The position numbers and the translations under genes were made by a program. The notes beneath the pieces are model-generated. The model saw nothing but the letters and a program-made list of their open reading frames with translations, ran no database searches and had not been told where the DNA came from. A stretch of 12,765 nt of DNA from a virus (Duplodnaviria > Heunggongvirae > Uroviricota > Caudoviricetes). The stretch spans positions 1 to 12,765 of the IMG/VR virus record IMGVR_UViG_2529292922_000012. One strand, 5' to 3'. Positions 1 through 12,764 of this stretch are shown one piece after another (the first letter of the stretch is position 1; every line of letters starts with the position of its first letter).

Positions 1-274
1 GTCCCATTGACCGAATATTAAGATAATGACTTCCTGTTAACCACCCCTGTATGCTTAAGATGACCCTTCCCGCATCCACACCTCGCCCATCATCCCAACC
101 ACGGATAAACTCACCGCGTAAATCCGGTAATTTATTGGTGGGGTAGGCCTTTGCCAGTTTGGGATACATTTCAGAAGAAAATGCTGCACCATTGCATTTT
201 AGCCAGCCCGTTGGTGGTGTTTCTAAGGGCCACGGAACGGGCACACCAACAGGCAGTGCAGAGCCTTCCCCTAA
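1..274 (-). CDS. Tail-fibre C-terminal cassette, 5' part only (continues past the left window edge); no start codon of its own
   Basis: Minus-strand frame open from ~274 to position 1. Translation begins ...LGEGSALPVGVPVPWP...DDGRGVDAGR like the two downstream cassettes, then diverges. Antisense of track ORF 159..362. Confidence 0.6.
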
Positions 275-329
275 ACCAACGTTTTCATGCCGCCCTTACG
301 ATATAATTAAACGCAATGTTACGAGGACG
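69..329. repeat. Direct repeat copy A (~260 bp) spanning a cassette boundary
   Basis: Near-identical to 508..768 at a constant 439-bp offset, with scattered substitutions. Confidence 0.9.
266..291. other. Candidate invertase crossover site (cix/mix/hix-like), copy 1
   Basis: TTCCCCTAAACCAACGTTTTCATGCC. Shares the AAACC-AA-(C/G)GTTT core with recalled hixL (TTCTTGAAAACCAAGGTTTTTGATAA). Sits at the 5' end of a cassette. Confidence 0.5.
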
Positions 330-713
330 AATGGTTACATAATTAACCCCATCACCTCGTGAAGGCCCTGCAAATGAAAAACGGGAAAATCCTGGTTGGT
401 TAGAAACAATTTGGTCATAGTTATTGATTGAATGACCAGACCCAATGTCGAAATTACCTCCGTAATGAGAAAAACTTGTACCATCCTGCCCTGAAAGCAG
501 GGTACGTCCCGCATCAATCCCGCGCCCATCATCCCAGCCACGGATAAATTCACCGCGTAAATCCGGTAATTTATTGGTGGGGTAGGCTTTTGCCAGTTTG
601 GGATACATTTCAGAAGAAAATGCTGCACCATTGCATTTTAGCCAGCCCGTTGGTGGTGTTTCTAAGGGCCACGGAACGGGCACACCAACAGGCAGTGCAG
701 AGCCTTCCCCCAA
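285..713 (-). CDS. Tail-fibre C-terminal variable cassette (collar-like conserved N-part, variable tip, conserved ...RPRNIAFNYIVRAA end)
   Basis: Track ORF, 142 aa. N-terminal ~65 aa near-identical to cassette 724..1185. The 'M' is a TTG inside the crossover-like site; the frame stays open a few codons upstream, so it is probably a 3' gene segment fused to a constant 5' part after inversion. Confidence 0.75.
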   Translation of the reverse strand: MGEGSALPVGVPVPWPLETPPTGWLKCNGAAFSSEMYPKLAKAYPTNKLPDLRGEFIRGWDDGRGIDAGRTLLSGQDGTSFSHYGGNFDIGSGHSINNYDQIVSNQPGFSRFSFAGPSRGDGVNYVTIRPRNIAFNYIVRAA

Positions 714-768
714 ACCAACGTTTTTATGCCGCCCTTACGATATAATTAAAGGCAATATTACGAGGACG
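508..768. repeat. Direct repeat copy B (~260 bp)
   Basis: Aligns with 69..329 and, more divergently, with 982..1197. Confidence 0.9.
705..730. other. Candidate invertase crossover site, copy 2
   Basis: TTCCCCCAAACCAACGTTTTTATGCC. Imperfect dyad around a central AA, same orientation as copy 1. Confidence 0.55.
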
Positions 769-1185
769 GTTTTCATTAGCTGTTGGCACGACACGAGAGG
801 CGTCGAATCCAAGGTCATCGGTTTTGCCTATATCAGTTGTGTTATTCGGCATTCTCGCAGATCGTGTTCCTGCATCATAAAAAGCCCCTCTGATTGCATC
901 AAAAGACATGCCAATCCCGCCATCTGCGAACCCCTCAATATTTCTTATTGCATCCCCCTGTGAAGATAATAATTGTCGCCCGGCATCCACACCACGTCCG
1001 TCATCCCAGCCACGAATAAATTCACCGCGTAAATCCGGCAATTTATTAGTAGGGTAAGCCTTTGCCAGATTTGGGTACTTTTCAGAAGAAAATGCTGCTC
1101 CGTTACATTTCAGCCACCCCGTTGGCGGAGTGGCTGAGGGCCACGGAACAGGTACGCCAACGGGCAGTGCTGAGCCTTCCCCCAA
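724..1185 (-). CDS. Tail-fibre C-terminal variable cassette, proximal to the invertase gene
   Basis: Track ORF, 153 aa. Same conserved N-part (GEGSALPVGVPVPWP..TPPTGWLKCNGAAFSSE..AKAYPTNKLPDLRGEFIRGWDDGRG) and same C-terminal NIAFNYIVRAA as 285..713, with a different middle. Begins at TTG inside the crossover-like site. Confidence 0.75.
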   Translation of the reverse strand: MGEGSALPVGVPVPWPSATPPTGWLKCNGAAFSSEKYPNLAKAYPTNKLPDLRGEFIRGWDDGRGVDAGRQLLSSQGDAIRNIEGFADGGIGMSFDAIRGAFYDAGTRSARMPNNTTDIGKTDDLGFDASRVVPTANENRPRNIAFNYIVRAA

Positions 1186-1197
1186 ACCAACGTTTTA
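982..1197. repeat. Direct repeat copy C (~215 bp, more diverged; homology stops at the crossover-like site)
   Basis: Aligns with copies A and B from 'catcccagccacg' to 'caaaccaacgtttt', then diverges toward the invertase gene. Confidence 0.85.
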
Positions 1198-1203
1198 GTC
1201 TTA
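1178..1203. other. Candidate invertase crossover site, copy 3 (right boundary of the invertible region, ~55 bp upstream of the invertase start)
   Basis: TTCCCCCAAACCAACGTTTTAGTCTT. Repeat homology ends exactly here. Arrangement mirrors gixR-gin and cixR-cin. Confidence 0.55.
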
Positions 1204-1256: not shown

Positions 1257-1829
1257 ATGCAAATTGGCTACATTCGTGTGTCAACAAATGACCAAAACAC
1301 AGATTTACAAAGAAATGCACTGAACTGCGCAGGATGTGAACTGATTTTTGAAGATAAAATAAGCGGAACAAAGTCAGCCAGACCAGGCTTGAAAAAGCTG
1401 CTCAGAACGTTATCAGAAGGAGATACGCTGGTTGTCTGGAAGCTGGATAGGCTTGGCAGAAGTATGAAACACCTTATCACGCTTATAGAGGAGTTGCGGG
1501 AAAAAGGTGTTAATTTCCGTAGTCTGACAGACAGTATTGACACATCAACACCCATGGGGCGTTTCTTTTTTCATGTCATGGGTGCTTTAGCAGAAATGGA
1601 ACGTGAATTAATTGTTGAGAGAACACTGGCCGGACTGGCAGCTGCACGCGAACAGGGACGCATTGGCGGACGTCGCCCGAAGTTGACAAAAGAACAACAT
1701 GAGCAAATAGCGAGGTTGATCGAAAATGGCTACAGCAGGAAACAGTTGGCAATTATTTACGATATCGGTGTATCGACGATTTATCGTTATCATCCTGTAG
1801 AGAAGCGCCAAACTCAATCTGAGCTGTAA
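1257..1829 (+). CDS. cin: Serine recombinase, Hin/Gin/Cin/Pin/Min-family DNA invertase
   Basis: MQIGYIRVSTNDQNTDLQ...VVWKLDRLGRSMKHL...SLTDSIDTSTPMGRFFFHVMGALAEMERELIVERT...GRIGGRRPKL plus C-terminal HTH: canonical invertase motifs with catalytic Ser in IGYIRVST. The track starts at an upstream TTG (1248); I chose the internal ATG, which gives the family-typical N-terminus. Symbol reflects P1-like context. Confidence 0.9.
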   Translation: MQIGYIRVSTNDQNTDLQRNALNCAGCELIFEDKISGTKSARPGLKKLLRTLSEGDTLVVWKLDRLGRSMKHLITLIEELREKGVNFRSLTDSIDTSTPMGRFFFHVMGALAEMERELIVERTLAGLAAAREQGRIGGRRPKLTKEQHEQIARLIENGYSRKQLAIIYDIGVSTIYRYHPVEKRQTQSEL

Positions 1830-6256: not shown

Positions 6257-9244
6257 ATGAGCTTAAGCGATCAGGTGGTAATGGCCACCAGCATAGAAAC
6301 GCTGATCGAGCTGCTAAAGAACCTGCCCGATTATGGGCGGGTTTCGTATGTGGTGACAGCGAAGGGAGACGAGGTAAAAACAGCGTTTGATATCGTCGAT
6401 GCCTCAGCTCTTTTGGTATCCAATACTCTGGATGGGAAAATTAATCCTGACTATCCCCAGGAACTTCAGCCGCGCGACCGGACCCGCGCATCCAGCCTTC
6501 TTCAGGTTAACCAGATATCCAAAGATTTGCGGCCTGCTCAGCTTACTGATTCCGGTTTATCCAGCCATGGTGCGCCGATAATTGGTGAGGACAATGCCGT
6601 TGAGTCTGGTAATGGACGGACCATGGGGATCATCAAAGCCTATCAGGACGGCAATGCGGATCGGTATCGTGAGTACCTGATTGATCATGCGACCGAATTC
6701 GGCATACGACCTGAAAAGGTTGAATCAATGACGGCTCCGGTACTGGTGCGCCGCCGGTTAACCAAGGTTGACCGCGTTCAGTTTGCCAAGGACTCAAATA
6801 TTTCTGATCTTCAGGAAATGGCAGCCAGTGAAAAGGCTTTTGTTGATGCCGACAGCATAACACCGGCGATGATGGCGCTTTTTAACCCGTCAGAAAGCGG
6901 AGATCTGCTTAGCCGCAGTAATGACGCGTTTATTCGCGGATTTATGACGCAAGTTGGTGCCACACAGGCGGCTGGCCTTGTAACGGAAGATGGGCGACCA
7001 ACGCGGCAACTTGTTGACCGTATACAAAACGCGATCTTTGCCAAGGCATATAAGGATGCGCGCCTGGTAAGGATGGTTGCAGAAGAACCTGATCCGGATA
7101 TGCGTAATGTTCTGACGGCGCTTAATGCGGCAGCCAATGATTTTGTCCAGATGCAGGCTTTATCAGGAGAAGCGCACAAGCAGGCTGTGACAACTATTGT
7201 TGATGGCATTGAGACAGCGGATAGCCTCGATAAAAAGGCGCTGGCGGCATTGAAAGATGCGGTAGACCTGGTAAGGCAATCGAAGGAGTCAGGCCAGCAT
7301 ATTACCGATGTTATTGCTCAGGGGGATATGTTCAGCGAAACGGCCCCGGAAGTGAAAGCACTCGCGTTGTTCATCGTCGCGAATAACCGTAGCGCGAAGC
7401 GTATGGCCACCGCCTTTAAGTTGATGGCTCAACGTATCAATGATGAGTTACAGCACCAGGGCCAGGCGCTGGGGGATATGTTTGGCGGTGGTGATGTGTC
7501 GTTACAGGATATCCTTCGCCAGGTGTCTCAGGAACTGGAAAACGAAGGCATGCAAGGGATATCCGGCGGTCTTTTCGAGTCCGTTTCCGGCGGTAGTTAC
7601 AATGGTGTTGCTCCATATACCAGTTTGCTATTACATCGGGCATCCGGCATCAAAGACATTATTCATCTGATCAGGCTGCTTTCCCGTACAGATCCCCAGG
7701 ATGAACAGCTTGTACAAGTGCTTGCGCATTTTGTTCGAATGCCTGTTGCCGACGTGAAAAAATGGTGCCGATTATTCGGTATCAGCAATTCGTTACTTCG
7801 CGGCTTGTTAAATCACGCATCCTCCCTTGGGCGCGATGGCTTTGACGAGATAGCGCAGGCGATAAAAAACGGAGATATGCCACCAGCTATTGACTGGTTT
7901 TCCATTCGCCCAACCAGGGTGAAAGCATTCCTTAGCGCGGCGCATTCGGCATCACCATTGGCAGAAATGGTTCAGAGGTTGTCGCTCATATTCACAGACC
8001 ATACCGCGTTGGGTGATCTGACTCTGGACGAGATGAAAGAAGCCTCCATTCAGTGGGCCGATCAACAAAATGAGGTTAACTCTGACTTCTTGCCAGCATT
8101 CAGGAAGGCCGTTAGTAAAGCGGATGATGCCCGTGGAATTCTGAGGGCATTTAAGGCATTGCAAAGTCAGGTTAATAAACATGTCGGTGATATCGATGGG
8201 GTAACGGCGGAAGGCAGGGATATCCTTAAAGAGCACGGCATAACGCCAGAGTTTATTGATGAGATCAGGACTGATATGCAGCGTGAGGTCGTATCGTCCC
8301 TGCAAATCGTAGCCAGAGCGTTGGCGGATGCTAATCCGAAGAGTGCGGCCATTGTTAACCGTGTTATTGGTGATATTGAAGCATCGGAGGGCATGGGGGC
8401 GCTGAAACTCTTCCTTTCGCGAGCGTTTAATCCTAACGGCAATATTCTCCCCGGCATTATTGGTGAGGCTAAAAAGTATGTCAGCGAAGAAGAACTTGAG
8501 CAGCTTGACCAACTACTTAAGCGATTCTCATATAACCCGCAGACACGCTGGCAAATGAATCAGCGAAGTATGGGTTCGGTCCACGAGAAAGTGTTATCTG
8601 CCATGAACAGTGCGATCGCAAACTCATCCGTATCTGAAGAAAAAGCTCTTGAGTGGGCCGACTCTTTTATCACGGAAGAAGTGGAAGAAGCCCGCGCTGG
8701 ACAGAATGGTGGGATAGACCTGCGCAAGGAACTTGCTGATATTTATCGCCTGACCGGCGGGAAAATATCGACATTATCAAAGGTAGTTCACCACCAGGGA
8801 AGGGCATATGCAAATCTTAATGGTGTTGTTGCTGTCAATTTGAACGATGAAAATGCAAGTGCACTGTGGCACGAGCTGGGTCATCATCTTGAGTACAGTA
8901 ACCCTGGTTTGTTAGAGAAAGCCCGGTCATTCCTGAAGGCCAATGTTGAAGGGGATAAGCCATCTTTCGTCAATATCGGTGGGCGTGGCAAGCCTGAATG
9001 GTGCTTCAGATCTCGATTGAGTAATATTTATATGGCGAAGGTATACCCGCCAGCCTCAGTAAGTAACACCGGGAAAATTCGGCAGAAATCACCGACTATT
9101 TCCAAAACGTCAGCAACGGAAGTATTCTCTATGGCTCTTCAGTTGTATCATGACAAAGAGGCCGCTGCCGCATCACTGATGAATGGTGACGGATTGCTGG
9201 AACTGTTATTAGGTGTGGCAAAGGAGCTAAATAATGCAGATTAA
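6257..9244 (+). CDS. ddrB: DdrB-like large protein: ParB/Srx-like N-terminal signature plus C-terminal HExxH (zincin-like) motif
   Basis: 995 aa. ELQPRDR...GAPIIGEDNAVESGNGRTMGI resembles ParB boxes (QPR / GxxR). HELGHH at aa 872-877 (nt 8870-8887). Long helical middle. Confidence 0.6.
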   Translation: MSLSDQVVMATSIETLIELLKNLPDYGRVSYVVTAKGDEVKTAFDIVDASALLVSNTLDGKINPDYPQELQPRDRTRASSLLQVNQISKDLRPAQLTDSGLSSHGAPIIGEDNAVESGNGRTMGIIKAYQDGNADRYREYLIDHATEFGIRPEKVESMTAPVLVRRRLTKVDRVQFAKDSNISDLQEMAASEKAFVDADSITPAMMALFNPSESGDLLSRSNDAFIRGFMTQVGATQAAGLVTEDGRPTRQLVDRIQNAIFAKAYKDARLVRMVAEEPDPDMRNVLTALNAAANDFVQMQALSGEAHKQAVTTIVDGIETADSLDKKALAALKDAVDLVRQSKESGQHITDVIAQGDMFSETAPEVKALALFIVANNRSAKRMATAFKLMAQRINDELQHQGQALGDMFGGGDVSLQDILRQVSQELENEGMQGISGGLFESVSGGSYNGVAPYTSLLLHRASGIKDIIHLIRLLSRTDPQDEQLVQVLAHFVRMPVADVKKWCRLFGISNSLLRGLLNHASSLGRDGFDEIAQAIKNGDMPPAIDWFSIRPTRVKAFLSAAHSASPLAEMVQRLSLIFTDHTALGDLTLDEMKEASIQWADQQNEVNSDFLPAFRKAVSKADDARGILRAFKALQSQVNKHVGDIDGVTAEGRDILKEHGITPEFIDEIRTDMQREVVSSLQIVARALADANPKSAAIVNRVIGDIEASEGMGALKLFLSRAFNPNGNILPGIIGEAKKYVSEEELEQLDQLLKRFSYNPQTRWQMNQRSMGSVHEKVLSAMNSAIANSSVSEEKALEWADSFITEEVEEARAGQNGGIDLRKELADIYRLTGGKISTLSKVVHHQGRAYANLNGVVAVNLNDENASALWHELGHHLEYSNPGLLEKARSFLKANVEGDKPSFVNIGGRGKPEWCFRSRLSNIYMAKVYPPASVSNTGKIRQKSPTISKTSATEVFSMALQLYHDKEAAAASLMNGDGLLELLLGVAKELNNAD

Positions 9245-9545
9245 AATCGCAGCGCCATTAGGCGGAGATGCCATTATCGAATTTGATGATAATGAAGAAG
9301 TTTCCGGGCGTTTAAGCATTATCTCCGGTGACATTACCGAGGACATGATCGCTGAAGCCATAGCTGGGGCAAATCCCAATAGCTATATGGGATTCGTTAA
9401 CACCCTTGATGCTCCCGCAAGTGATGTTCTCCGAACGCTGCATCTTTACGCTGGCTGGTTTGTTGATTGGCCAGCAGTAGATGGTGGCGATGAGGACGAC
9501 GACGACGATGATTTTGGTGATCATGTAGACCAGATCGTATATTGA
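9234..9545 (+). CDS. Small protein with highly acidic C-terminus, translationally coupled to ddrB
   Basis: ATG overlaps the ddrB 3' end. SD AAGGAG 7 nt upstream. 103 aa ending DGGDEDDDDDDFGDHVDQIVY. Last gene before the terminator. Confidence 0.55.
   Translation: MQIKIAAPLGGDAIIEFDDNEEVSGRLSIISGDITEDMIAEAIAGANPNSYMGFVNTLDAPASDVLRTLHLYAGWFVDWPAVDGGDEDDDDDDFGDHVDQIVY

Positions 9546-10671: not shown

Positions 10672-12764
<2,093 letters not shown>

Follow-up and report, generated by a model that had tools for sequence, protein, structure and literature searches.

The window, by which we mean the whole 12,765-nt stretch of DNA analysed here, very probably carries the invertase-proximal end of a multiple inversion region of the p15B Min type, in which the two constant ends of each tail-fibre cassette are the parts of a split collar domain and the 5' parts of the cassettes, here called heads, also recombine homologously. 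Both ends of a cassette stay constant, most likely because together they form one small collar domain on which the variable receptor-binding tip sits. Min-type multiple inversion of P1-like plasmids is a known system and the finding is an ordinary one, already known; it describes the packing of a known host-range switch and not a new mechanism.

The element and its invertase gene

Downstream of the window's invertase gene lie the P1 genes lydA, lydB, darA, ddrA, ddrB and hxr, and the backbone is 98-99% identical to that of many 90-100 kb IncY P1-like plasmids, which are not mobilizable. Judged from its sequence, the element is a P1-like phage-plasmid. Positions 1-1900 are 99.1% identical to plasmid pMCR_SCKP-LL83, whose invertible region matches min, the multiple inversion region of p15B, with 99% identity at 92% coverage (PMC5786510); the likeness of the window to p15B min was reached by way of this plasmid and its published comparison. 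The invertase itself (190 aa) matched Pfam Resolvase at 2e-51 in a profile search, together with HTH_7, and aligned over its full length with two structures of Gin from phage Mu, 4M6F and 3UJ3 (E about 1e-92), and it keeps the catalytic motif RVSTNDQ near its N-terminus.

Cassettes, crossover sites and the repeat

On the minus strand of positions 1-1202, distributed over three reading frames, three promoterless tail-fibre 3' cassettes (A, B and C) lie head to tail and adjoin the invertase gene. The features are as follows.

1257..1829, plus strand: serine DNA invertase gene of the Gin/Cin/Min family, 190 aa (Pfam Resolvase and HTH_7; Gin structures)
1177..1202, minus strand: crossover site 1, the outer site, adjoining the invertase gene and with no tail beyond it; on the plus strand TTCCCCCAAACC AA CGTTTTAGTCTT
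1194 to 727, minus strand: cassette A, 156 aa, stop TAA at 726-724 (reading frames)
979..1194, minus strand: head of cassette A, 72 codons, NVGLGEGSALPVG...RGWDDGRGVDAG (Pfam Collar PF07484, 3e-15; T4 gp37 alignment)
769..978, minus strand: variable middle of cassette A, 70 codons, type 0, presumed receptor-binding insertion (middle-type comparison)
724..768, minus strand: tail of cassette A, RPRNIAFNYIVRAA plus stop TAA (726-724), predicted collar C-terminal strand (matches the last 13 residues of gp37)
705..730, minus strand: crossover site 2, central AA at 717-718, overlapping the last two codons and stop of A and the first six codons of B
722 to 288, minus strand: cassette B, 145 aa, stop TGA at 287-285 (reading frames)
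507..722, minus strand: head of cassette B, 72 codons, predicted N-part of the collar; 86% identical to the A head and about 98% to the C head
330..506, minus strand: variable middle of cassette B, 59 codons, type 1 (middle-type comparison)
285..329, minus strand: tail of cassette B, RPRNIAFNYIVRAA plus stop TGA (287-285) (reading frame, alignment)
266..291, minus strand: crossover site 3; on the plus strand TTCCCCTAAACC AA CGTTTTCATGCC
283 to 1, minus strand: cassette C, cut by the window edge (reading frames)
68..283, minus strand: head of cassette C, predicted N-part of the collar (reading frame, alignment)
1..67, minus strand: start of the middle of cassette C, type-8-like, RVILSIQGWLTGSHY..., cut by the window edge (reading frame)

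Every cassette begins NVGLGEGSALPVGVPVPWP..., inside a 26-bp crossover site that reads GGCATAAAAACG TT GGTTTGGGGGAA in the sense of the cassettes. The site has the form TTCCCC(C/T)AAACC AA CGTTTT.., with two imperfect inverted half-sites and a 2-bp core, and the window's copies agree with the consensus in Table 3 of PMC4134206. The conserved 20-mer of the site core, TTCCCC(C/T)AAACCAACGTTTT, was found three times in the window and in none of 200 shuffles, and all three sites are in direct orientation. The first codon of the next cassette, AAC, begins 1 nt past the stop of the one before it; successive cassettes therefore lie in different frames, each one frame off the previous.

An earlier note on this DNA had claimed that each repeat unit spans a cassette boundary, from the tail of one cassette through the site to the head of the next, and this is borne out by the direct-repeat family together with the reading frames. 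The repeat search gave a single direct-repeat family at 68-329, 507-768 (96% identical) and 979-1240 (76%), whose unit of about 264 nt runs from a cassette tail through 1 nt into the head of the following cassette, with the site lying across that junction. The third copy, on the invertase side, has the site and the 5' part without a tail. We rejected the extension of this copy to 1240, as its real homology ends at the site, at about 1202; when a decayed tail was sought at 1203-1256 by local alignment with 26 tail variants, 455 of 2000 shuffles reached the same score. The note was also right that the two complete cassettes share one C-terminal end, A and B both finishing in ...RPRNIAFNYIVRAA and a stop, with 40 of 42 nt identical over the 14 codons. 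As to where these ends lie, 724-768 was correct and 285-330 was one base too long (285-329); they do fall inside the repeat, but to place them next to the site is inexact, since the last two codons and the stop of a cassette lie within the 26-bp site that follows.

Probable multiple inversion in the relatives

In the relatives the order is a constant tail-fibre gene (2-3 kb), cassettes on the same strand, a central segment with the sole tfa gene, a converging array and the invertase gene. A site scan showed that arrays of plus- and minus-oriented sites converge in loci L001-L005, and the relatives have 5-13 crossover sites compared with three in the window. Between their constant gene and the cassette fused to it lies a hybrid site, TTCTTGATTACC TT GGTTTGGGGGAA, which reads ...YLGLGEGS.... 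Cassette types that are on one strand in some plasmids are on the other strand in others, the constant gene was found fused to cassettes in ten different ways, and cassette type 0 lies away from the invertase gene and on the other strand in L014; the number and order of cassettes also vary among plasmids. Strand-swapped cassettes and varied fusions are what inversion at the central TT predicts. As the sites of the window are all direct, we infer from these relatives that inversion probably takes place in this element as well. The serine invertase would exchange strands at the central TT of oppositely oriented sites, with the partner sites lying to the left of the window (beyond position 1), and one cassette at a time would thereby be joined, in frame, to the fibre gene's constant part at the junction ...YLGLGEGS....

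The cassettes could instead be read as independent small genes, which is how RefSeq presents them ('phage tail protein', 142-170 aa, TTG start): the open reading frames at 285-713 and 724-1185 on the minus strand have TTG starts, and PGAP annotates their equivalents in relatives (L003, L005 and L010). However, the TTG lies inside the crossover site and the conserved frame (NVGLG...) begins upstream of it, in relatives this sequence is found as an in-frame fusion with the constant fibre gene of 2-3 kb, and a promoter scan finds no more sites than in shuffled sequence. We regard independent genes as hardly credible. Such 3' fragments have been described as mis-annotated alternative alleles (PMC4134206), and the RefSeq small-gene annotation of silent cassettes is most likely an artefact that recurs in hundreds of plasmids. 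For the cassettes there is no NCBIfam model.

Complete cassettes number from 2 to 9 per plasmid, and one plasmid has one type twice (L003 9139-8702 and 8216-7779); this varying number points to duplication and loss between direct repeats. The single tfa gene of a Min-type region lies in the central converging segment (L003 6212-6823, L005 6666-7277, L001 8204-8815 and other relatives), and for the window it would be situated left of position 1. The type-8-like middle, as seen in cassette C, is in the relatives the one followed by this gene. Because of its central position tfa has to be turned round by every inversion, and half of the isomers have it antisense to the fibre gene; natural plasmids show both orientations. 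It would seem from this that most collar cassettes fold in its absence, or that tfa has a promoter of its own.

The constant ends and a probable split collar domain

The heads score 56.2 and 55.0 bits against Pfam Collar PF07484, for which the cut-off is 24. In a search of solved structures the head aligned with the T4 gp37 chain from position 27 onwards, which is residue 811 onwards, and the tail aligned with gp37 1014-1026, its last 13 residues, VKNIAFNYIVRLA. The C-terminus of T4 gp12 reads RPWNISLNYIIK, and the short tail fibre 9CUY has the same head, an insert and the unit RPKNIAVMYIIK. In gp37, residues 811-881 together with 1010-1026 make up the collar domain D10, which has the receptor-binding needle D11 (882-1009) as an insertion (PMC6957217). 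The head, of 72 codons, and the tail, of 14, correspond to these two D10 parts in position and in size. On the strength of these alignments, head and tail are most likely two halves of one collar domain with the variable tip inserted between them. The receptor-binding tip would then be an insertion into a small collar domain, as in gp37 D10.

An AlphaFold2 monomer had pLDDT values of 80-90 in the head, 83 in the last strand and below 50 in the middle, with a mean pLDDT of 60, and its best fold match, with the middle at low confidence, was 2XGF (E 1.5e-5, TM 0.40). The predicted model is consistent with a split collar, though no proof of contact between head and tail. The likeness to the tip of gp37 (PDB 2XGF; D10 with the inserted needle D11) thus lies in a head that corresponds to D10 from 811, in a variable part placed between the two ends, and in a tail that reads NIAFNYIVRAA where gp37 ends in NIAFNYIVRLA. 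T4 has no inversion system, and the inserts of the cassettes are shorter (56-93 residues compared with 128) and unrelated to the T4 needle in sequence.

Conservation of the tail with and without a following site

The window and 13 related loci together gave 74 complete cassettes, and all 74 end in RP[RH]N[IV]AFNYIVRA[ADT]. The next site begins 1 nt after the stop in 55 cassettes, and no crossover site follows in the other 19, where what comes next is the start of tfa (with an overlap, TAATG), the end of the converging tfa gene or, in two cases, some other sequence. The earlier note had expected homologous cassettes to carry the shared tail and to carry it within the repeat; the first expectation stands for every complete cassette, and the second fails for 19 of the 74. 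Among the best 120 of 3365 database homologues, 115 have the strict tail motif, three have one substitution in it, and two are truncated or frameshifted. Since the tail is kept where no site follows, it belongs to the protein and not to the repeat, and its position within the repeat is a by-product of the stop-to-site packing of the cassettes.

Phage SKA5, an unrelated phage with Mu-like baseplate genes, carries cassette A (L006 4001-4471) at 90.5% identity over exactly 724-1195, in a two-site system in which tfa then follows. The limits of the homology coincide exactly with the site and the stop codon, which indicates that a whole cassette moved between phage types. The type 0 middle of cassette A is found in 10 related loci, SKA5 included.

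Another reading would assign the tail DNA to an enlarged recombination site, or give it the role of an accessory sequence that the invertase requires. This would account for the last 20-27 nt before the stop being more uniform in cassettes followed by a site (TTTAATTAYATCGTAAGGGCGGCATAA) than in those followed by tfa, and for a lower dS in the last nucleotides before the stop. Yet the outer site (1177-1202) and the junction site of the constant gene have recombined in relatives without an adjoining tail, type 0 being displaced in L014 and ten fusions to the constant gene having been seen, and by definition a crossover site in this family measures 26 bp (PMC4134206, Table 3). We consider an extended site very unlikely, and return to the tail as a conserved part of the protein.

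Frameshifts, often in runs of G or A, were seen in L004 (pHeN100_02), L008 (vB_EcoM-673R5) and parts of L002, L010, L011 and L012, and the invertase gene is split into 'Hin1' and 'Hin2' in frameshifted relatives. These frameshifts look like sequencing errors and not biology. L004 and L008, which have apparent homopolymer errors, were left out of the statistics; elsewhere complete cassettes alone were counted.

Substitution pattern and selection on the ends

The middles fall into 15 types that are mutually unalignable (about 50% identity in global alignment, which is the noise level). Between types, DNA identity is 87% in the head (69% at third codon positions) and 81% in the 15 codons before the stop (53% at third positions). 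We computed dN/dS across 14 representative cassette types and obtained 0.09 for the head, with a dS of 0.76, and 0.06 for the tail, with a dS of 1.07; over the ends as a whole dS ranges from 0.6 to 1.1 and dN from 0.02 to 0.10. The combination of low dN/dS and high dS indicates that both ends are old and are kept by protein-level selection, not by uniformity of the DNA, and purifying selection on the protein would be the main force that keeps them. The contrast between constant ends and a variable middle drawn in the earlier note therefore holds for the encoded protein, but not for the tail DNA, which is far from constant at a dS of about 1.1; the alignment of ends and middles at protein and DNA level that it proposed finds both ends conserved, through selection on protein rather than DNA uniformity. 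Near the site, dS is lower on both sides (0.58 and 0.61, compared with 0.86 and 1.12), and some DNA-level homogenisation or site-related constraint thus reaches beyond the 26 bp.

Were the repeat a recent tandem duplication, neither end would have to be under selection, and units 2 and 3 of the window are indeed 96% identical, with heads of B and C that agree at about 98%. Across the 14 types, however, the ends combine their dS of 0.6-1.1 with a dN of only 0.02-0.10 (dN/dS 0.06-0.09), and the motif is common to T4 gp37 and gp12. High dS, low dN and a motif shared with T4 together imply an old divergence under purifying selection, and a recent duplication is highly improbable as the source of the constant ends.

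Homologous exchange among cassettes

Copies of the same type in different plasmids have middles that are 95-99.9% identical, and their heads differ at 17-46 of 210 positions, in blocks that are common to other types. The four-gamete test requires at least 21 recombination events within 210 nt of head (Hudson-Kaplan Rm = 21). The share of variation explained by middle type falls from 0.87 beside the middle to 0.26 beside the site, where the permutation level is about 0.15, and this linkage decay towards the site is strong (Spearman 0.90, p = 7e-22). Close to the site, head positions track neither the neighbouring cassette upstream nor the plasmid (0.21 and 0.17, compared with 0.19 and 0.16 in permutations). 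The mosaic blocks of the heads imply paralogous gene conversion or homologous crossing-over, as exchange at the central TT cannot produce them. Short-read polishing of assemblies could inflate head mosaicism in repeats of 200 nt; identical mosaic haplotypes recur in independent plasmids, and we infer that the mosaicism is biological rather than an assembly artefact.

The tail is linked to its own middle (association 0.75-1.0), and we found one clear tail chimera, in L003, where a type-3 middle is followed by a complete type-7 tail. Exchange is thus almost entirely in the 216-nt head and only rarely in the 45-nt tail, so that homologous exchange through both constant ends, as first proposed, is seen at the head and hardly at the tail. 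As a second layer beside inversion, the long head repeats would recombine homologously or convert among paralogous cassettes, and the short tail would seldom do so. There is perhaps an even chance that the collar repeats form such a layer in full, with conversion and unequal exchange between heads reshuffling, duplicating, deleting and importing cassettes among P1-like plasmids and unrelated prophages. In this reading, such exchange is why the 'constant' head of a given cassette varies more between plasmids (8-22% of positions) than its 'variable' middle does (0.1-5%).

The causal reading in the earlier note went further, taking the ends to be constant as homology arms for the swapping of middles, in a layout selected for evolvability. 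The abundance of paralogous head exchange (Rm = 21 in 210 nt, with linkage decay), the L003 tail chimera, the presence of cassette A in the unrelated phage SKA5 with homology bounded by site and stop codon (724-1195), and the differences in cassette number and order between plasmids all favour it. Against it, the tail DNA is synonymously diverged (third positions 53% identical, dS about 1.1), is just 42-45 nt long and stays linked to its own middle (0.75-1.0). The same ends are moreover kept in T4 gp37, in gp12 and in single-copy fibres without a cassette array, and protein constraint is therefore enough to explain them. Selection of the ends as homology arms thus seems unlikely to us, and we retain the constraint of a shared collar domain as the reason for their constancy.

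Comparison with known systems

The Min multiple DNA inversion system of plasmid p15B was reportedly described by Sandmeier, Iida, Arber and colleagues in 1990-1992, and has six crossover sites. Like p15B Min, the element has a P1-like backbone, an invertase gene of the Gin/Cin family adjoining the invertible region, and more than two 26-bp sites inside a tail-fibre frame with alternative 3' segments. It differs in that the window holds the invertase-proximal part only, with three direct sites, whereas the relatives have 5-13. Mosaic fibre genes that exchange at conserved motifs were reportedly treated by Sandmeier in 1994, in a paper cited in PMC4134206; the principle has been on record since the early 1990s.

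The recombinase family and the position of the invertase gene are also those of the Cin system and C segment of P1 and of the Gin system and G segment of Mu, and there, too, a constant S part is fused to alternative 3' parts at a 26-bp site. In P1 and Mu, however, there are two sites, and the two alternative sets each come with an assembly gene (U and U'), whereas this system packs many short cassettes from stop to site and the relatives have one tfa per region.

In prophage Phi2 of the E. coli ST131 strain EC958, a site ...AAACGTT GGTTTGGGGGAA lies in a 227-bp repeat coding for a Phage Tail Collar domain, and inversion was seen directly in PacBio reads (PMC4134206). The window shares both the type of site and its location within a collar-encoding repeat, and an ST131 prophage locus (L007) has two tandem cassettes with the same stop-to-site packing. 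The EC958 systems differ in being chromosomal prophages with 2-3 sites, in which a second fibre or assembly gene usually comes after the cassettes. As in the R64 shufflon, which acts on the C-terminal segments of pilV through Rci, several invertible segments lead to alternative C-termini of an adhesin. We rejected membership in the R64 type, as Rci is a tyrosine recombinase with other sites (sfx) and the enzyme of the window is a serine invertase.

For host-range engineering, the split collar would show where the tips of fibres can be safely swapped. What is annotated in hundreds of P1-like plasmids as small 'phage tail protein' genes would be silent cassettes and not genes, and the cassette repertoires of these plasmids, which are often resistance carriers, would be reshuffled by homologous exchange as well as by inversion.

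Other features of the window

The repeat search also returned an inverted repeat at 753-788 and 1913-1948 (36 nt, 81% complementary), by which the DNA 3' of the invertase gene (1913-1948) resembles, on the opposite strand, the end of cassette A, ...TANENRPRNI. A tblastn search for a cassette relic 3' of the invertase gene gave just TANENCSRNVV, at E 0.05, and a YIYRAA match in the wrong order. Positions 1913-1948 may be the relic of a former cassette outside the present invertible region.

An IS21-family element occupies 10897-12698 on the plus strand, with IstA at 10897-11919 (rve integrase core and HTH) and IstB at 11916-12698. Matches of P1-like plasmids to the window end at 10810, and the element therefore seems to have inserted into the P1 backbone beyond the hxr-like gene (9234-9545).
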